Below are positions 23,973 to 64,000 of a stretch of DNA of 64,000 nt, piece by piece; within the stretch, counting starts at the first letter, position 1, and each line of letters opens with the position of its first letter. Both the position numbers and the translations under genes were made by a program. Source of the stretch: a virus. Under the pieces are notes generated by a model. That model searched no databases, was not told the DNA's origin, and saw only the letters and a list, made by a program, of their open reading frames with translations. Location of the stretch: UHGV virus genome UHGV-1376660; one strand, written 5' to 3'.

Positions 23973-23980
23973 GATGCCTC

Positions 23981-28339: not shown

Positions 28340-28348
28340 ATTGCACCA

Positions 28349-47464: not shown

Positions 47465-47499
47465 TGGTGATGACAATATCTCAACCGTATGGGGGCTTA

Positions 47500-47994: not shown

Positions 47995-48069
47995 GTATTA
48001 ATCCCTAAAGCTCTCAGTGTCTTTCTAAGACACCATATTTTATGCCCCGGTAAAACCATGAGTTTACGT

Positions 48070-48714
48070 TTAAAACGTCTCAGGGGGCTTCTGACGCGCT
48101 ACGCTGATGTCGATTACCCCAGCTTTTGGGCGAGGGTCGACAAGATTCAACTCTTCAGCGCTGTGATACTCCGTATCGAACTCCCGATCGACATGGCGAA
48201 TGTAGATGGCCGTGAGAAGGCTGTCGTCGTTCAGGAAGTGTCCGTAGGATTTGCGGATCACTTCGCCAACCTTCTCGATCTTCTCCCCACCCATGCAAAG
48301 ATGGTTAAACCGGCTATGTTTCCGCAGCATCTCATCCACCGGGCCGGAGTAGACCTTATCGACTCTCCCGAACCGGATGATATTTCCAGTATCAGCCTCA
48401 ACCAGACAAACGAGCTTGCCAGGTTCGACCCGGTCTCGCCATGTTACACCAGAGCGGAGTGTGTTGAAGTAGGGAGCGTCTAATCCGATGATCGGTTTAC
48501 GAAATGCCAGCAGTGGCACGTAACGTATGCAGCTGTTCAGGTGGAAGTGCGCACCGGCGTCGTGGAGTTTGAGCCGGGTTTCGTTAATCGGGCACTTCGA
48601 CGCAATGCCACACAGGTCGCAGAGCAACTTCTGTTTGTTCAGGCTAGTGTTCGATTCAATAGTGTAGGAGCCATCTTCAAGACGGCGAACCCAGCGCGTG
48701 CGTTTGAGATCCAT
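48070..48714 (-). CDS. Hypothetical protein
   Basis: 214-aa ORF. Confidence 0.4.
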   Translation of the reverse strand: MDLKRTRWVRRLEDGSYTIESNTSLNKQKLLCDLCGIASKCPINETRLKLHDAGAHFHLNSCIRYVPLLAFRKPIIGLDAPYFNTLRSGVTWRDRVEPGKLVCLVEADTGNIIRFGRVDKVYSGPVDEMLRKHSRFNHLCMGGEKIEKVGEVIRKSYGHFLNDDSLLTAIYIRHVDREFDTEYHSAEELNLVDPRPKAGVIDISVARQKPPETF

Positions 48715-48813
48715 AATTCTTATTCAAATAGTTTTGTCCGGGGCAACGATAACTGACAAGGCGCACCGATGTTTGCAAATGCCTGTTTTACTTATACCCA
48801 TTATTCACAGGAC

Positions 48814-48872
48814 CGATCCAATAATTAGATCCCCAGAGAGATCCTACAGAAGATCAAAAGAGATCCCCGATC
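48814..48872. promoter_or_regulatory. GATC cluster (6 Dam sites in ~60 bp) within a ~100-bp unit duplicated at 49185-49290 (3 GATC)
   Basis: CGATCC AGATCC AGATCC AGATCA AGATCC CGATCG. Confidence 0.6.
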
Positions 48873-48899
48873 GTCTCAAGCCGTTGCGGTTACTGGCCT

Positions 48900-49440
48900 G
48901 AGAGGGGGTTACTATCCACTATGGGGAGGAAAGTAACCTCTGTAGAGAGCATAATAACCGCTATGAAGAGCAAAACAACCTCTCTGGAGAGTGGTCGGTA
49001 TCCACTGTAGTGAGTAGGAGACATTGTCTTAACTGGATAACTCAGTGCCTGTATTTCTACGTCAGGTGGCTGATATTCATAGAGATGTTGGAAGGTTTGC
49101 GTTCAGGCGTGTTTGTTTCGACCACACATTATCCCCAGAAGGGGAGTAATGGCTGGTTTTGCAATTACCTGATTTTTATACACAGGCCCGATCCAGTAAT
49201 TCAGATCCCAAAGAGAACCAAAGAGACCCACAAAGACCCAAAAAGATCCCCGCACCCCGCAAACCGTTGTGCCACATGGCTTTAGAGGTGATCACTATCC
49301 ACTATAGAGAGAAGATCAGCCACTATGAAGAGCAAACCAACCACTGTAGAGAGTAGAAAAACCACTATAGGCGGTAGGATAACCGCTGTGATGAGTGCTA
49401 CTATCCACTGTAATCAGTAAAGGCCACCAAAGCCGTCGAA
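48900..49440 (+). repeat. Upstream iteron arrays (two sub-clusters, at least 10 copies of CCACTrTrGAGAGTAG-type 16-19-bp repeats; several resemble DnaA boxes, e.g. CTATCCACT)
   Basis: Direct repeats read from the sequence. Confidence 0.75.
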
Positions 49441-49458
49441 TAAAAAGAGACATTTGGA

Positions 49459-50514
49459 ATGAGCGAAAACGGCAATAAAAACATAGCGATCGTTGAAGCA
49501 TTCTCAGAAACAGACAAAAAGTCCGGCGAAGTTGTTACGTTGGTTCCTAACACCAACAACACAGTTCAGCCCGTTGCTCTGATGCGTCTTGGTCTCTTCG
49601 TTCCGACGCTGAAATCGACCTCCAGGGGCAGAAAGGGGCAAATGGTCTCTATGGACGCCTCTGCTGAACTCAAACAGCTGTCTCTGGCAAAAGCCGAAGG
49701 GTATGAGGACATAAGGATCTCTGGCGTTCGTCTGGATATGGATAACGACTTCAAAACGTGGGTAGGCATCATCCACGCGTTCGCCAAGCACAAGGTTGTT
49801 GGCGACACTGTCACGTTACCGTTTGTCGAGTTCGTCAGGCTTTGTGGCATACCAACGGCCAGATCATCCGCGAAGTTACGTAAGCGCCTGGACAGTTCTC
49901 TAACCCGTATCGCCACAAACACTATCTCATTCCGCACTAAAGGCTCTGAAGAGTATTACGTGACGCACCTTGTGCAGACAGCAAAGTACAGCACCAAGAA
50001 TGACACGGTCTCGCTGCAGGCTGATCCTAAGATTTTCGAACTCTACCAGTTCGACAAAAAGGTTCTTCTGCAACTCCGGGCAATCAACGAACTCTCCAGA
50101 AAAGAATCCGCGCAGGCGCTCTACACCTTCATCGAAAGTTTGCCACCTGACCCGGCACCAATCTCGTTGGCTCGCTTACGCGCCAGACTTAACTTAACCA
50201 GCCGCACCATTACCCAGAACGCGACAGTCAGGAAGGCGATGGAACAGCTGCGGGAGATCGGCTATCTCGATTACACCGAAGTGAAGCGCGGCAGCTCGGT
50301 CTACTTCATCATCCACTATAGGCGGCCGAAGTTACGCCCGGCATTGCCACCAGTTAAAGCTGCGTCGGAAGAACCAGAAGACATCTTGCCTGGTGATGAT
50401 CAGGAGGACATTATCGATGTTGTTCCTGAAGAAAAAGACGGTGAGATGGTCATGCTGAGCAAGGAAGAACTGGCGATTCTCGAAGAGCTGCGCAAGGCAA
50501 AGGCTCGCAAATAG
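49459..50514 (+). CDS. repA: Plasmid-type replication initiator (RepA/RepE-like, iteron-binding)
   Basis: 351-aa plus-strand ORF flanked on both sides by iteron arrays, the same architecture as P1/F-type replicons; not confirmed by search. Confidence 0.65.
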
Positions 50515-50519
50515 CCCAA

Positions 50520-51120
50520 CCACTGTAGAGAGTAGAAAGGCTCACTATCCGCTGTAGTGGGCCTTTTGTTTATCTGAAATCAGCTATCCACTGTAGTGAG
50601 TAACAACAACCGAAGAGTAACCACTGTAGGCAGTAGTGCTCAAATAACGAAATAAATGTTAGTGGTTACAAACATAGATGAAACAAGGGCTGCGAGGTTA
50701 GTGGTCACTGGGTGACTTGTTAAATCCACTCTCTATAGTGGTTATCGTTGCTCCCTTCGCTATTGGCTATCCACTGTGGAGAGCAGAACCGGTTGGCTGG
50801 ATATACTATCCACTGTGGAGAGTAGATATCCGCTGAAAACAGTGAAGGTTTACTCTCCATAGTGGATACCCGCTGGAGGGCGCATTCCATCACTCTCTAT
50901 AGTGGTTGTTTGCTGCGAATAAACGCCTGTTTACTCTCTACAGTGGATAGCGACGCCGATAAACGCCACTTTACTCACTACAGTGGATACAGGATGTCAC
51001 GACAGGAGTTTACTCACTACAGTGGTTGGGTTGCATACCTGAATGGCGCTCTACTCACTACAGTGGTTATGAGCCGGATACGCACGCGGTGAGCTGGCTA
51101 CTCACCGCAGTGGTTAGTGT
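50520..51120 (+). repeat. Downstream iteron array (about 12 copies, both orientations: CCACTGTAGAGAGTAG / CTACTCACTACAGTGG)
   Basis: Direct and inverted repeats read from the sequence. Confidence 0.75.
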
Positions 51121-51122
51121 TA

Positions 51123-51338
51123 TCAGTGGATTTTCTTCAGCAAACCCCAGAGTGTCCCGGCCTTTGTCGTGAGCTTACCTGTTTCCGGATCGTACATGCG
51201 CCATTCGCGACGCTGGTGGACAATAACACCGTCCTCACGTTCCAGACGCTCTAGCACGCCGGGTTGCTTAAACCCTTTGGCACGCCAGTAGCCGCTTGTT
51301 TTTTCGATTTCCAGACCTGCCAGTGTAACCGCCATCAA
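51123..51338 (-). CDS. Hypothetical small protein
   Basis: 71-aa ORF. Confidence 0.35.
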   Translation of the reverse strand: MMAVTLAGLEIEKTSGYWRAKGFKQPGVLERLEREDGVIVHQRREWRMYDPETGKLTTKAGTLWGLLKKIH

Positions 51339-51670
51339 CCAACCTCCTTGCAGTCATCGAAAAGGTAGCTGGCGTTCTTCGCGTGAACGCCGTAGACATC
51401 ACCTGATTTGTTGTAAACGAACTTATCTTCACCAACGCCAGACAGTTTGCCGTTACGTTTGGTGAGATAGGGGGAAGACAGGACGCGATCATCGCGCACA
51501 ACATAAAACTGTTCGCCGCTGTCCACAACCATCGCGCCGTAGCTGGCTTTGACGACATTGCGGATCACGTCGTTTTTCACTTCGGCCACTGACATCTCAC
51601 ACTCATAGACGTGCGTGTCCGCGTAGACAGGGAGGGAGATCAGCGCCAGAGCCAGGGCTGTTTTCTTCAT
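51335..51670 (-). CDS. Hypothetical periplasmic protein (signal peptide MKKTALALALISLPVYA)
   Basis: Signal peptide; 111 aa. Confidence 0.45.
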   Translation of the reverse strand: MKKTALALALISLPVYADTHVYECEMSVAEVKNDVIRNVVKASYGAMVVDSGEQFYVVRDDRVLSSPYLTKRNGKLSGVGEDKFVYNKSGDVYGVHAKNASYLFDDCKEVG

Positions 51671-51846
51671 GCCACGACTCCTTTGATAACGCCGAATGCT
51701 GAGTCGAATACCAGCACTACGGCCAGCGCATTAACCATCGCGCCATTAACAGGCGCCAGCGCTTTACGGATTGCTCCGGTGAAGATGCAATCGAGCACAA
51801 AAGCTATCGAGACAATAAGTAATAAAGTGTCTAATACAGTTTTCAT
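51670..51846 (-). CDS. Small hydrophobic membrane protein (~58 aa; not in the ORF track because <60 aa)
   Basis: Minus-strand ORF MKTVLDTLLLIVSIAFVLDCIFTGAIRKALAPVNGAMVNALAVVLVFDSAFGVIKGVVA; ATGA overlap with downstream gene. Confidence 0.35.
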
Positions 51847-51876
51847 GATAGGTAGATACTAACTTATATATTTTTT
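51845..51876. promoter_or_regulatory. Palindrome-family element ATGATAGGTAGATACTAACTTATATATTTTTT
   Basis: Sequence inspection. Confidence 0.45.
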
Positions 51877-51886
51877 GCTGTAAATA

Positions 51887-52162
51887 TCACTCAAAAGTGC
51901 TGATGCCTAAGATACGCTCAAGATGAGCCGCGTCTTCATCGCTTACCGGCATCGTGTCGTCGACGTACCAGCAACTACCGTTGTGCCAACAAACACCGTC
52001 ATCATCGACATACACAGAATCTGCATCAATGCCTGTGTACTCAACGAGATTGCGCTCAATTGCCGCTTGAATTTCTTCATCGTTCAGCCCATCGCACTTG
52101 ACCATGAATAGCGGGTAAACGTCATAGTCGGTGCTGGCTGAAATTCGAACCAAAATCTTCAT
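51887..52162 (-). CDS. Hypothetical protein
   Basis: Probable start MKILVRIS with SD AAGGAG; palindrome element 52177-52198 just upstream. Confidence 0.4.
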   Translation of the reverse strand: MKILVRISASTDYDVYPLFMVKCDGLNDEEIQAAIERNLVEYTGIDADSVYVDDDGVCWHNGSCWYVDDTMPVSDEDAAHLERILGISTFE

Positions 52163-52230
52163 GTGTCTTCTCCTTGTTGGTAAGTACTTATTTATATTAA
52201 TGTGCGCCATGCGGCGCACAATCATTGTGT

Positions 52231-52641
52231 TCAGGCTGGTGAAAAGAACTTCTCCAGCGTGCGGTCGACAGCTTTATCGATGTGCATCAGATGCCAGACG
52301 ACCATATCTTTACTTCCCATACCGCGGGTGTAGATCACGTCGAACTTACGCCAGGCGGCGTGAAACCAGTGCGGTGTATCATCAACCGGCAGATTCTCTC
52401 CAGCCTCCTTGAAGTACTTGAGCAGCATGGCCTGTTCAGCGGTGGGCGTCGGGCCAATCTCTTCCGCGTACATTCTGATGAAACGCTGCCAGTCGGCTTC
52501 ATCTTCTGAAGGTTCCGGTGCGTTCATCTCTGCAATCGCCTCACGCAGCTGCGTCGCCCATTCTGGCTCCGGGAAGCCCTGGGCAATTTCGGTATCCACT
52601 ACATCCAGCGCAGCGTTGGCCGCGTCATACAGTTTCTTCAC
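52231..52641 (-). CDS. Hypothetical protein
   Basis: 136-aa ORF. Confidence 0.4.
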   Translation of the reverse strand: MKKLYDAANAALDVVDTEIAQGFPEPEWATQLREAIAEMNAPEPSEDEADWQRFIRMYAEEIGPTPTAEQAMLLKYFKEAGENLPVDDTPHWFHAAWRKFDVIYTRGMGSKDMVVWHLMHIDKAVDRTLEKFFSPA

Positions 52642-53014
52642 GCTTTTTCTCCTGCATTAAAAGGAACACGGTCATTGCCGCTCTGAAAGGGTTAGGGTTC
52701 TGGATCAGATGTTGTGGCGTTGAGCTATCCACCTTTCTGTGGGCCGCTCTCCACTCGCCAGGCTGTCTGGCGGGGATTACGCCGATTCTGTGTCGATAAA
52801 TAATGTCCCACGCATCTTCCGGATCGTTACACCAGTCGAAGGTTCCGGCTCCGTTCGGGCCGATTGCGACCACTGCTGTGTAATCGCCTTCCTGTGAGCC
52901 TTTCCAGCCATATTGTGAGATAAGCGGTCGATGGCCGGTGGCTTCCGCGACCAGGCAGTTAATCTCAAAGTCCGTCATCTCGCTGTAATTTTTCATTCCC
53001 GATCTCCTTCTCAT
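52625..53014 (-). CDS. Hypothetical protein
   Basis: 129-aa ORF behind promoter-motif copy 53079-53112. Confidence 0.4.
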   Translation of the reverse strand: MRRRSGMKNYSEMTDFEINCLVAEATGHRPLISQYGWKGSQEGDYTAVVAIGPNGAGTFDWCNDPEDAWDIIYRHRIGVIPARQPGEWRAAHRKVDSSTPQHLIQNPNPFRAAMTVFLLMQEKKREETV

Positions 53015-53078
53015 CCGTTGCCGAACAACTATGTGGCGTTGTCACTTTGTACTTCTACGGATGCTAATTCCGTATTAG

Positions 53079-53112
53079 TAACCAATTTGTTTTCTTGTTG
53101 GTGATAATATGG
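53079..53112 (-). promoter_or_regulatory. Conserved early promoter/operator motif copy
   Basis: TAACCAATTTGTTTTCTTGTTGGTGATAATATGG. Confidence 0.6.
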
Positions 53113-53115
53113 AAA

Positions 53116-53140
53116 TAAAAAAGGCGTCCAAGTGGACGCC
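53116..53140 (-). terminator. Rho-independent terminator (GGCGTCCAAGTGGACGCC + T-run on the minus strand); stem family reused at 54256 and 56594
   Basis: GC-rich stem, A6 on plus gives T6 on minus. Confidence 0.6.
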
Positions 53141-53158
53141 GTATCTTTGAAAAGGCTG

Positions 53159-53989
53159 TTACTTCAACGCGATAAACGGAGTATTAGCCCCTTCAGTCAT
53201 GTACTGAGGCAACTGGCCATTCCATTTGTTGATGGCTTCCAGCTCCATGACGTTCGGGTTCTGACGTAATGCTTCACCGCGCAACTTGATGGCATCAGCT
53301 TCTGCTTGAGCACGCTTGCGGATAGCGTCGGCTTCACCTTCGGCTTGTTCACGCAGCATGTTCGCTTCTGCCTTGCGCTGCTCAACTTCCTGCTGGCGCT
53401 GGAGCGTTTTCTGGTTCGCGGTCACTTTGGCATTGATAGATTCGATGACAGTGTCCGGATAGTCTGGTTTGCCCACCCATGACAGGCTAATAACCTCAAT
53501 ACCTACCGGTGACATTTCTGCCTGAATGTCTTTCAGCGCATTGTCGAGCAGAGACGCCTTGCCACCGTCGATGAACGTGTCGGTAGTCATGCGGCTGGCC
53601 AGACGGTTCAGTGAGTCCGCAATCTTCTGGCGCAGATCAGTGTCGGTAATGTCATCAACACCTTTGCGATAGGTCTGGAATACGGTAGTTACTTTGTCGC
53701 GATTAACCAGATATGCCACACCAATTTTGTGGCCGATGGCTGTACCGTCGCTCATCTGGAATGTGAACGGCTCATCGTAGGTTTTCATCTGTTTGAAAGT
53801 GGGGAAGGTGTACAGCTCGGTATTCAGACCAGTCCACTGACGGCCAACGCCGACAACTTCACCGATACCTTTGTCTTCACCCAATTTGTTTACCTTAATG
53901 CCAACGTATCCCGGTTCCACGCGATCGCAGCCGGTCAGACCCATTGTGCAAATAGCAGCCAAAGCCACCGCCAGTAAACCTTTCTTCAT
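53159..53989 (-). CDS. SPFH/Band-7 (prohibitin/HflK-like) domain lipoprotein
   Basis: Lipobox LTGC after signal peptide; Ala/Glu/Gln-rich coiled region typical of SPFH C-termini. Confidence 0.65.
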   Translation of the reverse strand: MKKGLLAVALAAICTMGLTGCDRVEPGYVGIKVNKLGEDKGIGEVVGVGRQWTGLNTELYTFPTFKQMKTYDEPFTFQMSDGTAIGHKIGVAYLVNRDKVTTVFQTYRKGVDDITDTDLRQKIADSLNRLASRMTTDTFIDGGKASLLDNALKDIQAEMSPVGIEVISLSWVGKPDYPDTVIESINAKVTANQKTLQRQQEVEQRKAEANMLREQAEGEADAIRKRAQAEADAIKLRGEALRQNPNVMELEAINKWNGQLPQYMTEGANTPFIALK

Positions 53990-53992
53990 TAC

Positions 53993-54193
53993 TTACTTCT
54001 CCTTAGTTTTGTTGAGTGAGTTGATATACCTGCGGCCAGCTTTTAACAAGGCAACCGGGAAGACTACAGCGATGGCAAGTCCGATAAATAAGGCCAGATC
54101 GCTTTTAGCTGAGATAAGCGATGGAACCAGTAAACCGTAGATAAAGCAGACTGATATCACCGCTGAAACAGCCATGAGATAACCCTTGATCAT
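53993..54193 (-). CDS. Small 2-TM membrane protein (possible NfeD-like partner of the SPFH protein)
   Basis: 66 aa, two hydrophobic helices, ends KTKEK. Confidence 0.4.
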   Translation of the reverse strand: MIKGYLMAVSAVISVCFIYGLLVPSLISAKSDLALFIGLAIAVVFPVALLKAGRRYINSLNKTKEK

Positions 54194-54220
54194 GTGTTTC
54201 CTTTTGTCGTTTTGGTGTAG

Positions 54221-54248
54221 AAATGATAAGTAAGTACTTATATATTTT
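54221..54248. promoter_or_regulatory. Palindrome-family element AAATGATAAGTAAGTACTTATATATTTT
   Basis: Sequence inspection. Confidence 0.5.
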
Positions 54249-54283
54249 CAAGTATAAAAAGGCGTCCAACGGACGCCTTGTGA

Positions 54284-55360
54284 TTACGCTTCTTCTGTCT
54301 CTGCTGGGGACGACTCTTTCGCTCGCCGTTCGTCTATCGCCTGGAGTGCTGCGATGATTTCCGGGAGTGGCTTCTCGCGGTACATCTCGACGATCTGCGA
54401 TTTGGTGTATTTCTTATCGCCAATTTCCACACGCCCGCTGGCGTTCTTGGGCAGGTATCCTTCCTCCAGCATGTACTCAACCAGCGATTCGATGACGTCC
54501 AGCCCGCGAGTCGGGTCGAAGTAGAATTTCCATGAGCATTTGCCAAACGGAGGCGCGACTTTGTTTTTAATGCACTCGGCGCCAACGTCCTGTCCGATCT
54601 TCTCTTTGCCATCCTTCATAACGGATGCGCCCAGACGGATGCGCACCGACGCGTAGAACTTCGGAGAGTCGCCACCTGGAGACGTCGTCGGATCGCCAAA
54701 CATCACGCCAATTTTGGTACGCACCTGGTTCAAGAAGATGATGCACGCGTTGTACTTACGCGCCCAAAGCGCCAGAGTAGGGAAGTTCGCACTCGTCGCG
54801 CGCGCCAGCGCCGTGTTGTCGTTCATGTTCAGCTGATCTTTGTCCTTCGCAGTGCCTTCTGCCATCTTGTCGAACTTCTCAGCCTTCGAGTTCGGAACCA
54901 TCGACGCCAGAGAGTCGGCAACGATGCAGATAGGGGCTGTTTCCGGGATAAGCTCTTCGTCGCGCACCAGCTTGAGGATTGTGCCGATCAGCTCGACGGA
55001 ATCTTCGAAGGTATCCGGCTGTTTGTAGACCCACTGACCGTCGTCTTCGTCGGCGTTCAGTCCGTTCGCTACCGCCAGACCAACGTCGAAACTGTTTTCG
55101 TGGTCAAGGAATACGGCCAGACCATCCTGTTTCTGTGCTGACACCATTGCAGCCGTCGCCAAAAAGGTTTTACCGGCGCTTGGTGGCCCGAAGACTTCAA
55201 CGATACGCCCACACGGAAAACCACCGTCGTAACGTCCGGAAATGGCTTTGTTCAGTGGAGGGAAACCGGAGTCAATCCAGTGGGAGACCTTCTGGATCTC
55301 GTCATTGCTGCCGATTTTCTTTTTCAGCGCCAGTGCCAGTGCGGATTTGCCTTTTGCCAT
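54284..55360 (-). CDS. recA: RecA-family recombinase (closer to bacterial RecA than to T4 UvsX)
   Basis: GRIVEVFGPPSAGKTF (Walker A), FLNQVRTKIGVMFGDPTTSPGGDSPKFYASVRI, KNKVAPPF closely parallel E. coli RecA. Confidence 0.9.
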   Translation of the reverse strand: MAKGKSALALALKKKIGSNDEIQKVSHWIDSGFPPLNKAISGRYDGGFPCGRIVEVFGPPSAGKTFLATAAMVSAQKQDGLAVFLDHENSFDVGLAVANGLNADEDDGQWVYKQPDTFEDSVELIGTILKLVRDEELIPETAPICIVADSLASMVPNSKAEKFDKMAEGTAKDKDQLNMNDNTALARATSANFPTLALWARKYNACIIFLNQVRTKIGVMFGDPTTSPGGDSPKFYASVRIRLGASVMKDGKEKIGQDVGAECIKNKVAPPFGKCSWKFYFDPTRGLDVIESLVEYMLEEGYLPKNASGRVEIGDKKYTKSQIVEMYREKPLPEIIAALQAIDERRAKESSPAETEEA

Positions 55361-55362
55361 GA

Positions 55363-55629
55363 TTAGGCTCCTTTTGATTCGTTGATTCGCTTCGAAGCAG
55401 CGGCTTCGTCAAACTTGATTGCGTCGTGGTTCAGGTGTTTGGCGACGCGAGCGATGATCTTCACGACCTGCTCGCTGACCAGCGCGAACTCACGCTCAGT
55501 AGCAGAAATGCCAGCAGCGCCCAGAATGTTCGGCAGCGCCACCACAGCGTGCTCGCCGTGGCAGAAGACAATCTCTTTAGCCAGCATGGTTGGCGTAGTT
55601 GCCCCGCCATTAATGATGGATTTCAGCAT
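55363..55629 (-). CDS. Hypothetical protein
   Basis: 88-aa ORF between recA and the FEN gene. Confidence 0.35.
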   Translation of the reverse strand: MLKSIINGGATTPTMLAKEIVFCHGEHAVVALPNILGAAGISATEREFALVSEQVVKIIARVAKHLNHDAIKFDEAAASKRINESKGA

Positions 55630-56624
55630 CAGCAGTACCTCTCAAATGGCAGAACAAACACTTCCAGATCTTCCAGAAACGACCGGAAATTCAGCTCGTA
55701 ACACATCTGTTCGAAGGCATTCATGTCGCGTGCGCCTTTAATCGACTCGATTTCGCTGGGTGGGAATTTTGTGTCGATAAGGTTCATCAGCATCATGTTG
55801 CGCTTAAAGGCTTCGAGCATCCGGCAGCCCGTCTTCTCGTTGAAGGCGTTCTTTGCCAGCTTGTTGAATGCCGTCTTATAGCGACCTTTGTTGATGACAA
55901 TGGAGCCGTCGTTAATGCCGCGTACCATTGCGGCCACGCTTCCCCATTCATGAAGCAGCTCTTTCGCGCCACCATCACCAATGCCGCCGACGCCTTTGAT
56001 GTTGTCCGAGTTATCGCCCTGCAACGCTTTCGCTTCCAGAAACGCTCGTGGCGTTGGCAGACCGGTCAGCTCTGCGAACTGTTCGAAGTTCACCTGCTTG
56101 TGCTTGGCATCTTCACGCAGGCTTACCCAGCTCACATTCTCGCGAACCAGCTGGAGCCAGTCGCCATCGCCAGTCAGCAGGTAGATGCGATCGACGGTCG
56201 GCTGCGGAGCCAGGCGAGAGACCAGCATTCCAGCCAGGTCGTCCGCTTCTGCGTCCTTTGCAATGAGTTGGTTAACGCCCAGCGCGGTCATCATTTTCAA
56301 GATGTACGGCTTCTGGATGGCAAAGCCTTCTTTCATCTTCTTCATATCCGGGTCGTCATCGCGATTCGCTTTGTACTCCGGGTAGAAGTCGCGACGTTTG
56401 TCGCTGAATCCATCCCACAAGATCATTGGGCGGGCATGGAGAATTGAGGCGTAACGACGAACGTTCTTCACGAAGCCAAAAGCCGCCTGAACTTCCATCT
56501 CGCCGTTGTGTAATTTGTCGGATTGCTGGTGGTAATAGCCCAGGCTGTTACCGTCCACAAAGAGATAATTCACCGGTACACTCCTTCCAAAAAGTAAGGC
56601 GTCCGTAGACGCCTTACTGGTCAC
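55629..56624 (-). CDS. 5'-3' exonuclease / flap endonuclease (T5 D15 / Pol I 5'-exo family)
   Basis: LFVDGNSLGYY, AKDAEADDLAGML, LLTGDGD, QGDNSDNIKGVGGIG (H3TH) motifs. Confidence 0.85.
   Translation of the reverse strand: MTSKASTDALLFGRSVPVNYLFVDGNSLGYYHQQSDKLHNGEMEVQAAFGFVKNVRRYASILHARPMILWDGFSDKRRDFYPEYKANRDDDPDMKKMKEGFAIQKPYILKMMTALGVNQLIAKDAEADDLAGMLVSRLAPQPTVDRIYLLTGDGDWLQLVRENVSWVSLREDAKHKQVNFEQFAELTGLPTPRAFLEAKALQGDNSDNIKGVGGIGDGGAKELLHEWGSVAAMVRGINDGSIVINKGRYKTAFNKLAKNAFNEKTGCRMLEAFKRNMMLMNLIDTKFPPSEIESIKGARDMNAFEQMCYELNFRSFLEDLEVFVLPFERYC
56594..56617 (-). terminator. Rho-independent terminator (GTAAGGCGTCCGTAGACGCCTTAC + T5 on the minus strand)
   Basis: Follows the SSB stop. Confidence 0.55.
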
Positions 56625-56633
56625 GTTATGGGA

Positions 56634-57662
56634 TTACAGAGCGTCCAGTTCAGCCAGCAGGTCGTCGAGACCTTCGTCAGCTGGTGCAGATGCAGCGGCA
56701 GCAGATGCTGAAGCACTTGCAGCTGCGGCGGCTTCCGGAGCTTTAACTTCTTCCGGTTTAGTTTCCGGTTTGAACTCAGCTTCAGCGGCACGCAGGATCT
56801 CTTCATCAACCAGGCTGGTGGACTCTGGAGCCGGAGTGTGTGCTGTAGCGACAGCAGCTGCGCCTTCCGTATGACCAGTGATAGAGCCAAAGCCTGGCAG
56901 TTCAGCAGCAGCTGATTTTGCAGCGGAAGAAATGGCCGGAGAGGACATTGTTGCTGCCGGAGCCGCAATACCAATCAGACGACCCATAGTGCGAGCCGTA
57001 GACAGCAGACGAGTTTCGTCAGCCTGGTTCGCGTATGCGATCAGATCGTGTTGGGTAGTCCAGAGCTTCTCAGGAATGTCGCCTTTGTAGACTTTACGTT
57101 TCGGGGATACGTCGTACTTGGTGTCACGACCGGAACCGGTACGCTTAATCAGGAACGCATAGCCTTCTTCTTTGCTCAGTGGGTTGCCGATATCATCCGC
57201 AATATCTTCGGACATCACTTTGCAGATATCGTCGAAGACCGTAGACGGCAGCTCAATCAACTGGCATTTCTCTGCGTCTGCAAAGTCTTCACGCGCAGAC
57301 AGAACACCGTTGACCAGATAACGCGGTGTAGCACGCATACTGTTAATGCGCTCTTCCATCGCTTTGTTGCCCTTAAAGCGAGCACGACCTTCCATAACCA
57401 TCTCACACAGCTGGCAAGCGTGGCCGTGGGTGTGCTGTTCGCAGATGTAGGCGGTTGTTACATCTTTGCCTTCCTCATTCTGATGCTTAACGTAGTGCAT
57501 ACCGAATGTCTGGAAGAACACGCCATTCGGGTCGTCCTTGTTCGGAAAAATGCGCAGATAGTTATTGCCGTCTTTCAGACGGGTCAAATCAACGTTATTG
57601 CCACGTTTAGAAGCAATATCGCCACGGGTCTTGTTAAGCAGATCAAGTAATGACTTAGACAT
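56634..57662 (-). CDS. T4 gp32-like single-stranded DNA-binding protein
   Basis: NNYLRIFPNKDDPNGVFFQTFGMHYVKH parallels gp32 [25 protein letters not shown]; Cys/His cluster (CEQHTHGHACQLC) at the gp32 zinc site; acidic C-tail DEGLDDLLAELDAL. Confidence 0.7.
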   Translation of the reverse strand: MSKSLLDLLNKTRGDIASKRGNNVDLTRLKDGNNYLRIFPNKDDPNGVFFQTFGMHYVKHQNEEGKDVTTAYICEQHTHGHACQLCEMVMEGRARFKGNKAMEERINSMRATPRYLVNGVLSAREDFADAEKCQLIELPSTVFDDICKVMSEDIADDIGNPLSKEEGYAFLIKRTGSGRDTKYDVSPKRKVYKGDIPEKLWTTQHDLIAYANQADETRLLSTARTMGRLIGIAAPAATMSSPAISSAAKSAAAELPGFGSITGHTEGAAAVATAHTPAPESTSLVDEEILRAAEAEFKPETKPEEVKAPEAAAAASASASAAAASAPADEGLDDLLAELDAL

Positions 57663-57746
57663 GTATTTCTCCTTGTTGTGATTGTGGCCATTGGCGCTAT
57701 GCGCGTTGGGCGTTCGCTTATTCGTGGCTCTTTCGAGCGAGAAGAA

Positions 57747-57779
57747 TGATAGATCAGTACTTACTTACGATCTAGCATA
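57747..57779. promoter_or_regulatory. Palindrome-family element ATGATAGATCAGTACTTACTTACGATCTAGCAT
   Basis: Sequence inspection. Confidence 0.45.
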
Positions 57780-57781
57780 AA

Positions 57782-58213
57782 TTAACGGGGAGAGTGGAAA
57801 CGTTCGGCGCCCAAACGTTCAATCTCCACGATAGCCATTTTGGACGCCTGGACAATCATGTCGCGGCGGTGAGAGAAGGCGGCTACAGCGTGCTTGTACA
57901 GATCTGCAATGTGCCGGGCATCGTCGAGTTTCTGGCGCTTTGCGAGGTATTGCGGGTTGGTTCTAACCTTTGCCTCCAGTACGGACTCATTAAACTTAAT
58001 GCCGTTCATACTCAGGTTCTTACGCTCATTGTCGTAGATTTTCGCCTCAATCGCATCGAGGGAGAGTTTTGCATCTGCGACCTCGCGTTCTGCCCGCGCC
58101 AGCTTAGAGCCGTACTCCATCAACAGGCGCGGTTGCTGACGCCAGACTTCCTCAAGATTGTCGCGGTCGAACTCCAGATCGGACATGATTTTTTCGTAGA
58201 TATCGGTGCTCAT
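57782..58213 (-). CDS. Hypothetical protein; possibly a UvsY-like recombination mediator
   Basis: Probable start MSTDIYEK; position next to SSB; weak resemblance only. Confidence 0.3.
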   Translation of the reverse strand: MSTDIYEKIMSDLEFDRDNLEEVWRQQPRLLMEYGSKLARAEREVADAKLSLDAIEAKIYDNERKNLSMNGIKFNESVLEAKVRTNPQYLAKRQKLDDARHIADLYKHAVAAFSHRRDMIVQASKMAIVEIERLGAERFHSPR

Positions 58214-58421
58214 GGTGTTAATTACCTGCTTATTTATATATATCAATTTTATCATGGTGGGAGCAGGCAGTGGAGATTATGACACGATGAAATGGAGGTT
58301 ATGAGATAGGCAAGCCAGTGAAAAATCGGGTGGTTCTGGTACTCTATGCGCCGTTAAAAGCTGGCCGTAGACAGCGTGCGACAACAGGGCGGGGACATGG
58401 ACGGATGAATTTCATTCGCCG

Positions 58422-58453
58422 TTGACAGATGTCAACGCTGGTAATAGTATAAT
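58422..58453 (+). promoter_or_regulatory. Sigma70 promoter TTGACA-N17-TAGTAT (TATAAT 3 nt further) with inverted TTGACA/TGTCAA operator-like repeat upstream of hicA
   Basis: TTGACAGATGTCAACGCTGGTAATAGTATAAT. Confidence 0.55.
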
Positions 58454-58467
58454 ATTGTCGGAGGCGA

Positions 58468-58692
58468 ATGAAGAAACATTCGAACAAGCACATTCAAGCG
58501 GCCATTGAATATGCTTTAGACCAAGGCTGGGTTTGGGTTGCACCGGGCGATTCTGCTCACTGCTTTTGCAGGTTGCGTTGTGGCAATCCAGAAGGTGAAC
58601 ACCGAGATCACCAAATGAGTGTATGGTCGACGCCGAAAAGTGCTGAAAACCATGCCAAGCGAATCATAAGCACCGTAAAACACTGCAAGTGA
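58468..58692 (+). CDS. hicA: HicA-like mRNA-interferase toxin (YcfA family)
   Basis: LDQGWVWVAPGDSAHCF parallels the HicA GW..V...GSHH.F core; 74 aa; first gene of a two-gene plus-strand cassette. Confidence 0.45.
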   Translation: MKKHSNKHIQAAIEYALDQGWVWVAPGDSAHCFCRLRCGNPEGEHRDHQMSVWSTPKSAENHAKRIISTVKHCK

Positions 58693-58771
58693 TTTTGCCC
58701 GGTAAGGAGTGGCGACAACCACTCCTTACCGAATATAAGAGAATACTCTGAATACTAAACGAAGAGGTACT

Positions 58772-59335
58772 ATGGCGCTTTATAACTTCACTCTGACACT
58801 CTCAGGCGTAACGTATGAGACCGAAGGACTGGAAGACGCGCTGTACGAAAGCGGCTGTGACGATGCGCTGATTTGCGCATATGGAAACTCCGTCTATGTT
58901 GAGTTCGACCGCGAAGCTGAATCGCTGGATGCAGCTATTGCATCAGCGGTCGACAATATCGAATCAGCCGGAATCGGCGCTATTGTTGAATCTGTCGACT
59001 CTGCCCTTGTAGGCTTGAGCGACATTGCAGAAATAACAGAAATGTCTCGCCAGGCGATTGCGATGCTGAAAGATGGCACTCGTGGTAGCGGAGACTTCCC
59101 TTGCCCTATCCAACGAATCAAAGGCCAATCTCCACTTTGGGATTGGGCTGATGTAGCCGAATGGCTACTAAAGAACGGTCGATTAAAAGAAGACAGCAAC
59201 TTGGTAAATAACGCTCGTGTGCTGAGTAAATGGAATCTTGCCTTACGTGCAAGCGCTTCAAAAGATTTTCAAGAAGTTGAGTCGATCGCGGTAGCTCTTA
59301 TCGCACGTCGACGTCATCACGCCGAATGCGCATGA
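58772..59335 (+). CDS. hicB: HicB-like antitoxin with C-terminal AlpA/HTH_17-like DNA-binding region
   Basis: N-terminal YNFTLTLSG...EGLEDALYES (HicB/UPF0150-like), C-terminal LSDIAEITEMSRQAI...WDWADVAEWL HTH. Confidence 0.4.
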   Translation: MALYNFTLTLSGVTYETEGLEDALYESGCDDALICAYGNSVYVEFDREAESLDAAIASAVDNIESAGIGAIVESVDSALVGLSDIAEITEMSRQAIAMLKDGTRGSGDFPCPIQRIKGQSPLWDWADVAEWLLKNGRLKEDSNLVNNARVLSKWNLALRASASKDFQEVESIAVALIARRRHHAECA

Positions 59336-59363
59336 AAAAACCCGCCAATCGGCGGGTTTTTGC
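59335..59363. terminator. Bidirectional rho-independent terminator (AAAAAACCCGCCAATCGGCGGGTTTTTGC) between convergent genes
   Basis: A-run, GC stem, T-run. Confidence 0.7.
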
Positions 59364-59364
59364 T

Positions 59365-59808
59365 TTATGCGACTTTCTTACCAAAAATGTTGGATAGCGT
59401 GACTCTGGTCTGGCGTTTCAGCCTGTACTGCCTCACATCGCCAATCTTGTTCACTTCCATAAACTCTTTGGCCACCTTCAGCACCAGCCGATTGCGGAAC
59501 ACTTTGAACGCCTCCAGCTGTTCCTCTGGGTTATCCGATTCGTAGATCTCCAGCAGATACTGGCACGCCTTCGGATCTTGCGTTTTAAGCGCCAGCGCTC
59601 TGGCACATTTACGCAAACGACTGACTTTGTCGGCACCATCCAGCCCGGCGAACGCCAGCGCCAGATCTAACGTGACCGGACAGTCGATGATTTCCCAGAA
59701 CTGCGACCGCATGGTGGCCGCAACTGCTTTATCCTGAAAATCCGCTGGGATAGCCGCCAGCGCTTGTGCAATCTTCTGTGCCTCGTTCATGGTGTTCTCT
59801 TTATTCAT
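59365..59808 (-). CDS. Hypothetical protein
   Basis: 147-aa ORF, 4-nt overlap with the DnaE C-terminal segment. Confidence 0.4.
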   Translation of the reverse strand: MNKENTMNEAQKIAQALAAIPADFQDKAVAATMRSQFWEIIDCPVTLDLALAFAGLDGADKVSRLRKCARALALKTQDPKACQYLLEIYESDNPEEQLEAFKVFRNRLVLKVAKEFMEVNKIGDVRQYRLKRQTRVTLSNIFGKKVA

Positions 59809-60974
59809 TTGCTAATAGTCTCCGCTACCTCTGCCAGAATTGCTTCCAGCTTTTCGCCTTCTTCTGGGCGAAAGTACAAAATGTTTGGGTTAAATCCGTA
59901 GAAAACGGTCACATCCAGCTCCGGCAGATACTCTTTGCGTCCAACCAGGTCGGATGGTTTGTTCTTGTTGTTGAAGAGTGACGTCGCCCGGCTGCCACAC
60001 GTCAGCACATAGGTCGGACGCACCAGATTGACCTCTTCACGCATAAAGTCGGTGAACTGGCCGATCTCGTCTTTGGTGTAGTCCTTCTCTTTGTCCTTCA
60101 CCTTTTTGCACACGCCGGTGACGTAGAGATCGCCCATGCGCAGATCGCCTGCAGTAAGCAACTTCGCTTTAAAGTCGTCGTAGCCGTTCTCCATGAAGTA
60201 ACCGGTACGCCCATCATTGCCGTTCGCGTTGTCCAGAATGACCATGATTTTCGGCTTAATGCCAATGCTTGGGCGAATCAGGTCGTCTCCCAGACCCATT
60301 TCGGCCGCCATGCGAGTCATCAGTACATTCACCTCGGCAGAGCGCTTAGGGTTCATCTCGAACGGTCGAGAGGCTTTTACAGCGTCGATCACCAGATTGC
60401 CCATCAGCTCTGCCTGGTCGCGCAGACGTTCCGGGTCTGTCGCTGGCAGACTGCCAGGCTCAATCGATGCGAACGCACCTACTTTTTGCAGTGACTCGCG
60501 TACCCGGCTGTTACATGCACGCTTCTCGACCGATTCCTCGAATTGCGCCAGCGATTCGAATTTTCCGCCAACTTTCTCACGTGCTCTCATGATGGCCTGG
60601 CATCCGTTCTCAGAGCAGCCTTTCACAGCAGAGAATGGCGCATACAGAACCTGGCTGCCGTCTTCTAGCGTGCGGATCTCAATTCGGTTAGATGACACGT
60701 TAACGTCTGGTGGCAATATGCGAATACCATAGGTCAGCGCATCCTTAACCAGCCCTTGGTGCTTATCCTCGCCCAGAATGGTGAGAGCTGCAGCGAAGAA
60801 TTCAGCAGGGTAGTGCGTCTTTAGCCACATAGACTGATAGCTGATCAGCGAGTAGGCAACGGAGTGTGATTTGTTGAAGGCATACGCGCCGGATTTCTCA
60901 AACATATTCCAGATTTCTTCGGCTCGTTCGTGCGTCAGGCCATTACTCTCTTCAACAACACCGGTAATTTTCAT
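59805..60974 (-). CDS. dnaE: DNA polymerase III alpha (DnaE-type), C-terminal segment (exon 2 or a separately translated fragment)
   Basis: ERAEEIWNMFEKSGAYAFNKSHSVAYSLISYQSMWLKTHYPAEF aligns with E. coli DnaE [45 protein letters not shown]. Confidence 0.85.
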   Translation of the reverse strand: MKITGVVEESNGLTHERAEEIWNMFEKSGAYAFNKSHSVAYSLISYQSMWLKTHYPAEFFAAALTILGEDKHQGLVKDALTYGIRILPPDVNVSSNRIEIRTLEDGSQVLYAPFSAVKGCSENGCQAIMRAREKVGGKFESLAQFEESVEKRACNSRVRESLQKVGAFASIEPGSLPATDPERLRDQAELMGNLVIDAVKASRPFEMNPKRSAEVNVLMTRMAAEMGLGDDLIRPSIGIKPKIMVILDNANGNDGRTGYFMENGYDDFKAKLLTAGDLRMGDLYVTGVCKKVKDKEKDYTKDEIGQFTDFMREEVNLVRPTYVLTCGSRATSLFNNKNKPSDLVGRKEYLPELDVTVFYGFNPNILYFRPEEGEKLEAILAEVAETISK

Positions 60975-61705
60975 GCAGTCACCTCATCAATCTTCATGAA
61001 CTCATACCCATTGGACACCAGCCAGTCCCGCTGGCGCTCCCAGCTCCATACCTCTTCACGCATTTCGCTATGCAGACGAATGTGAGCGTCTTCTGGAAGT
61101 GCTACCAGATTCCCAGGGGCGTTATCTACCGTGTCGCGGTTAAGGTGGTGGACATGTTCATCGTCACGTAGCTCCCGACCGAGATGTTCTTTCGCTATCA
61201 ACCGATGAACGTATTCGTATTGCGAAACGCCATTGTTACCAACCAGCTGCATCATGTAGCCGTTGGTTTTTATGATGACGCCACCTTTGTAGTTGTTCGC
61301 TTCTTCTCCGGTCTTTCCGCGTTTGGCAGCCGCCAGCTTTTCCTTCGTCTCTAGGCGGATTGTTCTGCCGGTCAGCTTTTTCGAAACGGTGGCCACTCGC
61401 TCATCGGTATCAGCACGCAGCCCTGCATTCCACGAGGTTTTCCCATACATAGGGTTGCCAGCGCCAGCCCGGGCTTCGGAGAGTCGCTTTATGCGTTCGT
61501 CATTATTTTTGTTTTTGCCACGATTCCAGGCTGGGGTAGCGGAGATCCGCGCGTTTCCGCGCCTGATCCCCCATTTGGCTAATAAGCGATCGATATTTGC
61601 CTTGCTGCAACCAGCTTCGGCGGCAATGTCTTCTTTTCTCATCAGGTCAACCATGTAACGCTGGCGTAACCATTCTTCTGTGATTTTGTACTTCGTACCC
61701 GGCAT
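60971..61705 (-). CDS. HNH homing endonuclease inserted within dnaE
   Basis: HNH motif HVHHLNRDTVDNAPGNLVALPEDAHIRLH; own copy of the early promoter motif at 61719-61750; stop overlaps the ATG of the downstream dnaE segment. Confidence 0.85.
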   Translation of the reverse strand: MPGTKYKITEEWLRQRYMVDLMRKEDIAAEAGCSKANIDRLLAKWGIRRGNARISATPAWNRGKNKNNDERIKRLSEARAGAGNPMYGKTSWNAGLRADTDERVATVSKKLTGRTIRLETKEKLAAAKRGKTGEEANNYKGGVIIKTNGYMMQLVGNNGVSQYEYVHRLIAKEHLGRELRDDEHVHHLNRDTVDNAPGNLVALPEDAHIRLHSEMREEVWSWERQRDWLVSNGYEFMKIDEVTA

Positions 61706-61718
61706 TTCAAAAACTCAC

Positions 61719-61750
61719 TAAACAAATTGTTTTCTTATCTTATAAATTAA
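61719..61750 (-). promoter_or_regulatory. Early promoter/operator motif copy (degenerate) driving the HNH gene, located inside the dnaE intervening sequence
   Basis: CTAAACAAATTGTTTTCTTATCTTATAAATTAAC. Confidence 0.5.
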
Positions 61751-61753
61751 CTC

Positions 61754-64000
61754 TCAAATATCGAAGCTCGTTATGTCGGCATTTATAGCCATTGCTTCGG
61801 CATAAGTGCGACGCTCACCATCAGCGCAAAGTAGGCGTGCTGCTTTATGAATTTTCCTCGTAGAACCGTCATCCAGTGACACTGTCACCCAGCCTTCCTC
61901 CGCTCGCTTAATGAAGTTGCCGCCAATGGATTTCATTTTCTCCATATCTTTTTTCCCGATCGCTTTCCTGACCGAGTCTGCTTCCGCCATAGAGAACCCC
62001 GCCAAGATTCGCGTAGCAGCCATGATCTGTTCCTGATAAATCAGAACGCCGTTTGTGTCGCGAGAGATGTCGTCCAGCATTGGGTGTAAGGAATGTGGAG
62101 CCATGAAGCCTTTGGCCACGGAGACATAGTCGTCCAACATGCCGGATTGAATCGGGCCTGGTCGGAAGAGTGCGGTCGTGGCGACAACGGTTTTGAAGCT
62201 CATTGGCTCAATACCACCGCCAATATCTTTAAGCAGCTTGCGCATAGGGCCGGACTCCAGCTGGAATACGCCCTGCGTGTACCCTGCAGCGAACCCATCC
62301 AGAACCTTGCGATCGTCCAGTGGGATAGCATCGAGATTGATGTCTTCCTCGGTACTCTCTTTGATGTAGCGTTTCGCGCTATCCAGCAGATCGAGCGTTG
62401 CCAGACCGAGAACGTCCAGCTTAATCAGCCCCATCGCCTCGCAGTAACGTTTATCGAACGCAATACAGCGAGCGTTGCCACGCAGCTCGACGGGAGTGCG
62501 CTCTACCAGTGGAACGCCAGCGACGATCATCCCCGCTGCGTGACGGCCAAAACCACGCATCAGGCTTTGCAGCTTACATGCCGCTTTGAACGCTTCCGGG
62601 TTTTTCGTGGCGTATTTGTCTAGGCTGGCCAGTTGTTCGCGCAGCTCTTCCAGCGGCAGGCTATCGTCCTCCAGATTCTTGAACTCTTTGGATACCGCCA
62701 TATCCGCAGCGTCTACACCGTAAATACGCGCAGTGTCACGCAGCGCAGAAGCCGCGCCCAGATAGGTGAAGTTCGGAATACCGGCAACGTAATCTTCTCC
62801 ATAACGTTCATTCAGATACTCGATCACCTCATGACGACGTGCCTGGCTGAAGTCCAGATCCGCATCCGGCAAGTCGAGACGTTCAGGGTTAATGAAACGC
62901 TCAAACAGAAGACCGTGACGGATAGGATCGACGTTGGTTATGCCGATGCACCACGCCACCAGAGAACCGGCAGAGGAACCACGACCTGGCCCGACAGGAA
63001 TGCCAGTTTCACGGCTGTGATTCATCAGGTCGCGCACCATCAGGAAGTAACCGCAGAAGCCCAGGCGGGTCAGCGTGTCCATTTCGTACTTCAGACGATC
63101 AACATACACGCGGTGCTCAGAAGCCGGTGGTGTGTAACCAAACTCTTTGGTAGTAAGACGCTTGCGCAGCCCCGCGACAGCCAGCTTCATCAGCGTTGCA
63201 GGCTCGTCGTCTGCCATCTTGGGCAGTGCTGGTGGCAATTCATGCCAGCGCCATGTGCAGGCTTCAATAATGGTGTCCTGCGTTGTTGAGGCCATTGCAG
63301 CTGTTACAGGTACATCCATGCGAACGGAGAAGGCTTTCAGCGCTTCAAGGAGATGGCGGCGACCATTAACGGCGTTATCTCGCTGGTGGGGAATACGCAG
63401 ACGATGCGGCTGGTCGATTTTGATGTTGTTCGTAACCATGTGCGCAATGTCTTTAATGTCAGCGTCGTCGACCGCTTCGTAATAAGCGGGATAGAACGCC
63501 ACTGGCTCTATTTTCAGTGCGCTCGCCACTTTCATCGCCCGGACGTTAATCTGGTCGTAGAATGGGGTAGGGTGCGGATAAACCACGCTGTAGAAGTTAT
63601 CGCGTCCTCCAACTGTCACCAGCGTCCCGATAATCTTTGCGAAGTCCCGGCGCTGGAATACACTGCCAATGTCGGACGTCAGCAGGATGATGTTGCCTTT
63701 GGCATATGCGGCCGCCAGCTGGTCAAGTGCCAGACGCGGGACAAAGTAGAATTGCTCGCGCTTGTTGGCTAAGGTCATCAGTTCGCACACGTCGCGATAA
63801 CCTTGCTCATTCTTTATCAGTGCCGTGAAGCAGTAGCTGCGATCACGCACCAATGATTCCATACATCCTCCTGACTCTTTCGCCAGGCGGGCGCGGTGCT
63901 CGTATGTCGGATCGTCGACCACATTCAGCTTAACACCACAAATAACCGCCATGTCGTCGCCAGCGGCACGCTGCAGGGGGATCACACTGGCAATGTTCAT
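61754..64000 (-). CDS. dnaE: DNA polymerase III alpha (DnaE-type), N-terminal segment; continues beyond the window
   Basis: PHP and palm-domain motifs GIPVGPGRGSSAGSLVAWCIGITNVDPIRHGLLFERFINPERLDLPDADLDF; LIYQEQIM...; homology to DnaE ends at ...FIKRAEEG (about nt 61892), followed by 45 unrelated codons before the stop. Confidence 0.9.
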   Translation of the reverse strand: MNIASVIPLQRAAGDDMAVICGVKLNVVDDPTYEHRARLAKESGGCMESLVRDRSYCFTALIKNEQGYRDVCELMTLANKREQFYFVPRLALDQLAAAYAKGNIILLTSDIGSVFQRRDFAKIIGTLVTVGGRDNFYSVVYPHPTPFYDQINVRAMKVASALKIEPVAFYPAYYEAVDDADIKDIAHMVTNNIKIDQPHRLRIPHQRDNAVNGRRHLLEALKAFSVRMDVPVTAAMASTTQDTIIEACTWRWHELPPALPKMADDEPATLMKLAVAGLRKRLTTKEFGYTPPASEHRVYVDRLKYEMDTLTRLGFCGYFLMVRDLMNHSRETGIPVGPGRGSSAGSLVAWCIGITNVDPIRHGLLFERFINPERLDLPDADLDFSQARRHEVIEYLNERYGEDYVAGIPNFTYLGAASALRDTARIYGVDAADMAVSKEFKNLEDDSLPLEELREQLASLDKYATKNPEAFKAACKLQSLMRGFGRHAAGMIVAGVPLVERTPVELRGNARCIAFDKRYCEAMGLIKLDVLGLATLDLLDSAKRYIKESTEEDINLDAIPLDDRKVLDGFAAGYTQGVFQLESGPMRKLLKDIGGGIEPMSFKTVVATTALFRPGPIQSGMLDDYVSVAKGFMAPHSLHPMLDDISRDTNGVLIYQEQIMAATRILAGFSMAEADSVRKAIGKKDMEKMKSIGGNFIKRAEEGWVTVSLDDGSTRKIHKAARLLCADGERRTYAEAMAINADITSFDI

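Follow-up and report, generated by a model that had tools for sequence, protein, structure and literature searches.

A probable RepFIB/P1-type maintenance replicon with two tandem origin modules in the phage genome UHGV-1376660

Known replicons and the locus in UHGV-1376660

The plasmid replicon of phage P1 (oriR-incC-repA-incA; IncY) is annotated in GenBank record AF234172 as an oriR, a DnaA site, five Dam sites, five incC iterons containing the promoter PrepA, the repA gene and nine incA iterons. Checking these iterons directly shows the five of incC to be forward at a spacing of 21 bp, and those of incA to be three forward followed by six reverse, the first of which abuts the stop codon. 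SSU5, pHCM2 and pMT1 form one supergroup of phage-plasmids, which types as IncFIB (PMC7969092; bioRxiv 10.1101/2025.09.12.675607). The locus described here lies at 48.8-51.1 kb in a 64,000-nucleotide stretch of the virus genome UHGV-1376660 (hereafter the window, to which coordinates refer unless another molecule is named). It is very probably the theta replicon by which an SSU5/pHCM2-type phage-plasmid is maintained as a low-copy plasmid, and a member of the RepFIB/P1-oriR family.

This reading is based on homology, architecture, conservation and the status of the replicon as the only one typed in near-identical circular plasmids of ~105 kb. A RepA initiator, flanking iteron arrays and a P1-like origin are contained in a 2.4-kb stretch that holds no other convincing gene; a minus-strand open reading frame (ORF) bounds it on either side, the first with its end at 48714 and the second with its start at 51123. 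An earlier note on this DNA, made from the letters alone, had read the region as an incC-repA-incA layout and had guessed at an SSU5/pHCM2-like phage-plasmid. Every element that it listed is present where it was placed, with no more than the counts to be adjusted. The layout agrees feature by feature with the annotated P1 replicon, the guess proves to be literally correct, and all of the proposed tests that could be run in silico gave positive results, which together support the interpretation offered there. The replicon type is already catalogued and typed in databases, and at that level the original claim adds no new biology. Less documented is the conservation of an origin in two modules, the proximal of which is poor in GATC; no description of this arrangement was found in the literature searched. 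The identification places the window in an SSU5/pHCM2-type phage-plasmid and locates its maintenance replicon, which is of use for annotation, Inc typing and the design of curing or incompatibility tools; such elements, in which resistance genes can be present, occur in S. Typhi (pHCM2) and Y. pestis (pMT1).

Along its whole length, the interval 48700-51200 shares 95.8% identity with Salmonella phage SSU5; for the Salmonella IncFIB plasmid pCFSAN059543 the figure is 97.9%. Matching sequence is present in approximately 340 plasmid records, which come from Escherichia, Enterobacter, Yersinia, Salmonella and Citrobacter and of which 320 are non-mobilizable; the three inspected in PLSDB (pCFSAN059543, pHCM2 and pMT1) are all non-mobilizable, with IncFIB as their sole replicon type. 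The likeness to the IncFIB(pHCM2)-type elements SSU5, pHCM2 and pMT1 amounts to 93-98% identity for SSU5 and the close plasmids and 83% for Cyrano, and the flanking genes are the same. Measured from the repA start, the 11 upstream iterons, the 11 GATC sites upstream of the gene and the two DnaA boxes all keep the same positions in SSU5, pCFSAN059543, pHCM2 and pMT1. Cyrano shares this layout, but its distal module is shifted by 2 bp, and it has 10 GATC sites and the proximal DnaA box only. The number of downstream iterons varies from 14 in the window and SSU5 to 13 in pMT1 and 12 in both pHCM2 and Cyrano, while RepA is 351 aa long in the window as against 354 aa in SSU5 and pMT1. Lindler et al. 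are said to have described, in 1998, a single pMT1 region of ~2.45 kb whose RepA is similar to those of RepFIB, RepHI1B, P1 and P7. The copy numbers measured for pMT1 (1.2-1.8; PMC13321490) and Cyrano (5.5; PMC9928086) fit a low-copy replicon.

RepA, iterons and the tandem origin modules

The initiator gene occupies 49459-50514 on the plus strand and encodes 351 aa from an ATG start, this being the ORF that had been noticed between two repeat arrays. Pfam, tblastn and alignment assign its product to the RepFIB/P1 RepA subfamily of Rep_3 initiators, and repA is the name that the gene bears in the records of SSU5, pHCM2 and pMT1. When the protein was compared with hidden Markov models of Rep families, as had been suggested, the N-terminal winged-helix (WH1) domain Rep3_N (PF01051) matched residues 115-225 above the gathering threshold, with 43.8 bits against a cut-off of 22.4 and E = 4.3e-11; a search of NCBIfam gave no match for RepA. 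By tblastn, P1 RepA is 46.5% identical to the window protein over 76% of its length (E = 3e-71), and a search of phage genomes returned the RepA proteins of P1 and P7 at 46-47% identity (E ~1e-71). In an alignment of six sequences, identity to the window RepA falls from 91% in Cyrano through 77% in a Rahnella plasmid and 63% in RepFIB of the F plasmid to 47% in a Klebsiella pKpn-type plasmid and 46% in P1. Relative to the P1 protein, the window RepA carries ~40 extra N-terminal and ~45 extra C-terminal residues.

Iterons were sought throughout the 64-kb window with an iteratively refined 19-nt position-weight matrix, counting non-overlapping sites. This identifies 25 iterons of at least 16.8 bits with the consensus CTAACCACTGTAGAGAGTA, every one of them within 48912-51117; the rest of the 64 kb contains a single site above 16 bits, which scores 19.1 bits and lies at 46684. 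Markov-shuffled sequences of the same length yield 0-6 sites at ≥10 bits, and a repeat finder independently recovers the same iteron families. The 25 putative 19-bp sites adjoin repA and would be cognate to its product. An iteron-like 19-mer inside repA itself (50309-50327; TCATCCACTATAGGCGGCC, at the conserved IHYRRP motif) reaches 12.8 bits and was rejected as falling within the chance range of 0-6 per 64 kb.

Eleven of the iterons lie upstream of repA, all on the plus strand and in two sub-clusters, for which at least ten had been estimated. The cluster distal to repA, belonging to the module termed M1 below, consists of five direct 19-bp RepA-type iterons at a 21-bp phase (48912-49016, plus strand; starts at 48912, 48933, 48954, 48975 and 48998), found by both the weight matrix and the repeat finder. 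The proximal cluster, of module M2, has six direct iterons at the same phase (49295-49419, plus strand; starts at 49295, 49316, 49337, 49358, 49379 and 49401) and ends 40 nt before the repA ATG. It is the expected site of the repA promoter/operator, by analogy with P1, where PrepA lies inside the incC iterons.

The downstream array, put earlier at about 12 repeats in both orientations, contains 14 iterons ~30-40 bp apart, six of which are forward (starts at 50516, 50545, 50584, 50617, 50767 and 50806) and eight reverse (starts at 50727, 50851, 50891, 50932, 50972, 51011, 51052 and 51099); a weak fifteenth site is present at 50826. Iterons 1-4 (50516-50635, plus strand) are incA-like, the first beginning 2 nt past the repA stop codon, as in P1 incA. 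Iterons 5-14 (50727-51117), arranged as one reverse, two forward and then seven reverse copies ~40 bp apart, are predicted by analogy to be a copy-number control locus acting through titration and handcuffing. A terminator-like hairpin with a T-run, detected by a consensus scan only, follows repA at 50535-50567 on the plus strand and encloses the iteron at 50545-50563, which means that RepA binding and termination could interfere. Two half-iterons, GTTAGTGGT(T/C)AC, lie 39 bp apart on the minus strand (50658-50669 and 50697-50708), in the gap that divides the forward part of the array from the reverse part; both include AGTGGTTA, which is the TAACCACT iteron core in reverse complement, and are possibly partial RepA sites.

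Upstream of repA, 48770-49030 aligns with 49145-49435 at 78% column identity and with a period of 377 bp. The duplication of an upstream unit ending in iterons, as claimed in the earlier note, is therefore real, but the unit is larger than the ~100 bp given there, measuring ~230-250 bp and comprising a left half of ~120 bp together with the iterons. In both modules the order is a DnaA box, CGATCCA(A/G)TAATT, (A)GATCC heptamers ~11-12 bp apart, AGATCCCCG, a GC-rich stretch and the iterons. The DnaA boxes both fit the relaxed consensus TTATNCACA and are on the plus strand: TTATTCACA at 48801-48809 forms the left edge of the distal module, M1, and aligns with the DnaA boxes of P1 oriR, while TTATACACA at 49176-49184 forms the left edge of the proximal module, M2. 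The resemblance of iterons to DnaA boxes that had also been remarked upon is weak, the TATCCAC at the iteron 5' end fitting 7/9 positions, and the true boxes are the two separate TTATNCACA sites.

The two copies differ in their GATC content. In M1, six GATC sites in (A)GATCC heptamers, ~11-12 bp apart, occupy 48815-48872; their homologues in P1 oriR are the Dam sites, five of which are annotated there. These six sites in 58 bp (reported previously as six within 60 bp) form the densest cluster in the 64 kb, the next densest having 4 per 100 bp; GATC occurs on average once per 218 bp in the window, and the Poisson expectation for at least six in 60 bp is ~0.03 per 64 kb. By analogy, the cluster is predicted to be a Dam/SeqA-controlled unwinding region. 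The corresponding region of M2 (49190-49248) keeps three GATC sites, at 49190, 49204 and 49245, and its three other homologous heptamers have decayed to GA(A/C)CC (GAACC, GACCC and GACCC). The same decay is seen in the M2 copies of Cyrano and Rahnella.

Outside the iterons, M1 and M2 can each be aligned column by column with P1 oriR, with RepFIB of F and with the Klebsiella pKpn-type origin. These origins have in common the DnaA box, GATCCAATAAT, the heptamers and AGATCCCCGATC, with nhmmer E-values from 1e-22 to 1e-31; against the origin profile, M1 scores 3.8e-31 and M2 2.5e-24. A nine-way alignment of left halves, taking M1 and M2 from each of the window, Cyrano and Rahnella and adding P1, Klebsiella and F RepFIB, has invariant columns over the DnaA box, GATCC, TAA and AGATCCC. 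The P1 origin, which reads TTATCCACATTATCCACTGGATAGATCCAATAAT...AGATCCCTGATCG, is visibly homologous to M1 and M2.

Mean identity across eight diverged relatives is 0.67-0.71 in M1 and 0.57-0.64 in M2, compared with 0.40 in the flank upstream of M1 and 0.33 in the poorly conserved spacer between the modules (49017-49170), and five of the six GATC sites in M1 are invariant in this set. As the modules are more conserved than the spacer and flank, both appear to be under selection. A 91-aa ORF at 49010-49285, spanning the spacer and part of M2, was considered as a leader gene, but it covers the least conserved sequence, which is unrelated in Rahnella, and is probably no gene.

Searching with a profile of the left half finds two matches upstream of RepA homologues, 300-700 nt before the RepA match, at 41 loci, which include contigs and plasmids of Rahnella, Pantoea, Erwinia, Buttiauxella and Cedecea. 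A single match is found at 44 other loci, including P1, F RepFIB, the Klebsiella pKpn type, Photorhabdus and a second Pantoea clade. M1 has more GATC sites than M2 at 36 of the 41 two-module loci, the same number at five and never fewer, although these loci are phylogenetically related and do not represent 41 independent events. The distribution suggests that the duplication predates the split of the phage-plasmids from ordinary plasmids of Erwiniaceae and Yersiniaceae. Since the duplicated origin is common to replicons of Rahnella, Pantoea, Erwinia, Buttiauxella and Cedecea, the SSU5 replicon belongs to a wider plasmid clade.

The likeness to P1 encompasses the homologous left half of the origin, with its DnaA box, GATCCAATAAT, 5-6 GATC heptamers and AGATCCC-GATCG, the five iterons at a 21-bp phase in M1 and incC, and a downstream array that runs from the stop codon, first forward and then reverse. 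By contrast, the iteron sequence is unrelated (CTAACCACTGTAGAGAGTA here, GATGTGTGCTGGAGGGAAA in P1), and a different incompatibility specificity is consequently expected. P1 further differs in having a single origin module where the window has two, and nine downstream iterons rather than 14; nor is parAB adjacent to the replicon in the window. RepFIB, the replicon of IncF plasmids of the F/P307 type, has a closely related non-phage RepA, at 63% identity, and RepFIB of F likewise has an origin left half with TTATCCACA and 5-6 GATC sites as well as repeats on both sides of repA. It differs in its single origin module, its ATAAGCTGT-type iterons and a gap of ~150-200 bp between the origin-proximal repeats and repA.

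Closer still are the RepFIB-like replicons of large Pantoea, Erwinia and Rahnella plasmids, such as Rahnella sikkimica unnamed2 (NZ_CP019064), whose RepA proteins are 67-78% identical and which share both the iteron core AACCACTATAG... and the two-module origin with a GATC-poor proximal copy. Their spacer and leader sequences are unrelated to those of the window, and the 230-kb Rahnella plasmid, the one annotated record of this kind inspected, has efflux-pump rather than phage genes beside the replicon. In the Rahnella relatives, one more TTATCCACA DnaA box is present in the leader that separates the M2 iterons from the repA ATG, just before the start (one is at 2125-2133 of its locus). P1 likewise has a DnaA box on the repA side of its iterons, which the window and SSU5 lack.

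Proposed mechanism and alternative explanations

A mechanism can be proposed by homology with P1 oriR and RepFIB, drawing on established knowledge of P1 and the annotation of its record. RepA monomers would bind the 19-bp iterons that adjoin the DnaA box and the GATC heptamers, and RepA together with host DnaA would open the DNA at the heptamers and load the replisome of the host. Opening would be favoured when the heptamers are fully methylated by Dam, and SeqA would sequester them after firing, when they are hemimethylated. RepA on the iterons that immediately precede repA would repress transcription of the gene, and the 14 downstream iterons may restrain copy number both by titrating RepA and through RepA-mediated pairing (handcuffing) with the origin iterons. 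A scan of 48000-51800 against Rfam at E-values up to 0.1 found no RNA family, and hence there is no sign in this region of a known antisense or ctRNA control element.

The preferred assignment of roles would make the distal M1 (48801-49016) the firing origin and the proximal M2 (49176-49419) mainly the repA operator and a control or handcuffing array, because M1 keeps the full set of heptamers and M2 sits where the P1 promoter/operator lies. A bolder version, put forward tentatively and with a greater chance of being wrong than right, holds that the tandem duplication is ancient and selected in a large RepFIB sub-clade, and that the copies split the labour of the single P1 incC/oriR. The distal copy would then be the Dam/SeqA-gated origin; the proximal copy, which reproducibly lacks the middle and last GATC sites, would be a methylation-insensitive repA operator and intramolecular handcuffing partner, or else a second, sequestration-free origin. 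If so, the two-module origin would offer a natural system in which to separate origin firing from autoregulation, functions that overlap in the classic incC of P1.

Several observations weigh against the reading of the locus as a maintenance replicon or against the roles given to its parts. That the locus would replicate autonomously, depend on Dam, repress its own repA and control its copy number is attributed to it by analogy with P1 and RepFIB. The second winged-helix domain of RepA, Rep3_C (PF21205; WH2), matches residues 236-282 at 21.0 bits (E = 3.9e-4), 0.1 under the Pfam cut-off of 21.1, and no chain in the PDB was found for RepA at E up to 1, either by phmmer or with a profile of six sequences. 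A scan of the plus strand of M2 for sigma-70 consensus promoters gave no repA promoter that passed; a P1-like -10 element, TAGGAT at 49375-49380, was dismissed for its weak -35 and lack of conservation among relatives. Furthermore, M2 could equally be the origin, being adjacent to repA like that of P1, as it keeps a DnaA box, three GATC sites and six iterons.

The last of these points leads to an explanation in which both modules are independent origins, used alternately or depending on methylation or host, with one gated by Dam and SeqA and the other largely independent of methylation. Each module does contain the full set of P1-oriR parts (DnaA box, heptamers and 5-6 phased iterons), both appear to be under purifying selection, and the GATC-poor state of M2 is conserved in SSU5, Cyrano and Rahnella rather than being random decay, M1 having at least as many GATC sites as M2 at 41 of 41 loci. 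However, a role as operator and control array explains the conservation of M2 equally well, and one module suffices in P1, F RepFIB and the pKpn-type relatives, so that a dual origin is considered unlikely, if still a serious contender.

A more radical departure, which the earlier note had offered as its alternative, is an iteron-controlled lytic (vegetative) origin similar to the lambda O/ori system, serving virion production rather than plasmid maintenance. In lambdoid origins, too, iterons are bound by an initiator that the phage encodes; the element here is a phage, as its terminase and capsid genes show, and it has a Dam gene of its own, with helicase, primase and Pol III alpha genes present in the colinear SSU5 genome. 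Nevertheless, this origin type is not favoured and seems very improbable. RepA is homologous to plasmid-maintenance initiators, namely those of P1 oriR (not the lytic oriL/RepL) and F RepFIB, and Pfam gave Rep_3-family domains only, with no lambda-O-type replication domain. The iterons flank repA instead of lying inside it, no iteron of ≥14 bits occurring within the gene. Moreover, the same replicon, with its two-module origin, is found in the Rahnella, Pantoea and Erwinia contigs and plasmids described above, where the inspected Rahnella record has no phage genes beside it, and in pHCM2 and pMT1, plasmids that are stably inherited, no other replicon is typed. That the replicon is instead an inactive relic, with another, unrecognised origin maintaining the ~105-kb genome, is scarcely credible: nothing specific speaks in its favour, whereas the repA ORF is intact, the architecture keeps its position in SSU5, pHCM2, pMT1 and the 83%-identical Cyrano, the non-coding motifs are strongly conserved among eight relatives, and no other replicon type is called in the related plasmids.

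Phage context of the window

Virion genes and the plasmid replicon are carried on one molecule. The terminase large subunit (4599-5855) and the major capsid protein (1176-2051), both on the minus strand, confirm the terminase and capsid genes named in the earlier note, and the phage-encoded Dam methylase mentioned there corresponds to a minus-strand ORF at 32556-33149 that matches phage-type N6-adenine methyltransferases (PF05869, 4.4e-37; TIGR01712, 2.4e-32). This Dam is possibly a trans-acting factor for the GATC clusters, its GATC specificity being suggested by family membership. A second methyltransferase may exist besides Dam, as a 567-aa ORF with a DUF4942 domain at 26653-28356 (minus strand) is annotated as a DNA modification methylase in SSU5.

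Compared with SSU5 in reverse complement, the window is mostly colinear, at 84-98% identity, as judged by BLAST over window positions 1-48951 and 59943-64000, with SSU5 50001-60999 left out. It is contiguous across the ends of the linear SSU5 record at 6632/6633, where SSU5 position 1 abuts 103299, which implies that the source molecule is circular or differently permuted; the closest relatives of the window are circular plasmid records. Around 47466-47488, ~2 kb upstream of repA, the window lacks ~600 bp that in SSU5 and pCFSAN059543 hold a plus-strand hypothetical gene of ~167 aa (SSU5_072 / FGA25_RS24465) between the metallophosphoesterase and GNAT acetyltransferase genes.

The two ORFs that bound the replicon are on the minus strand, have no Pfam match and are not counted as parts of it: that at 48070-48714 is annotated elsewhere as an ASCH-domain protein, and that at 51123-51338 as a P1 Cra-like protein. 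With regard to partition, 8114-10115 (minus strand) encodes two consecutive ParB_N-domain proteins followed by an ABC-type ATPase, which is not a canonical ParAB pair, and the ParA-family gene of SSU5 falls outside the 64-kb window. Three segments, 12013-13815, 16551-23364 and 23364-24007, either have no megablast match to SSU5 or are 84-88% identical to it, and represent variable accessory regions in a window that otherwise matches at 94-98%.

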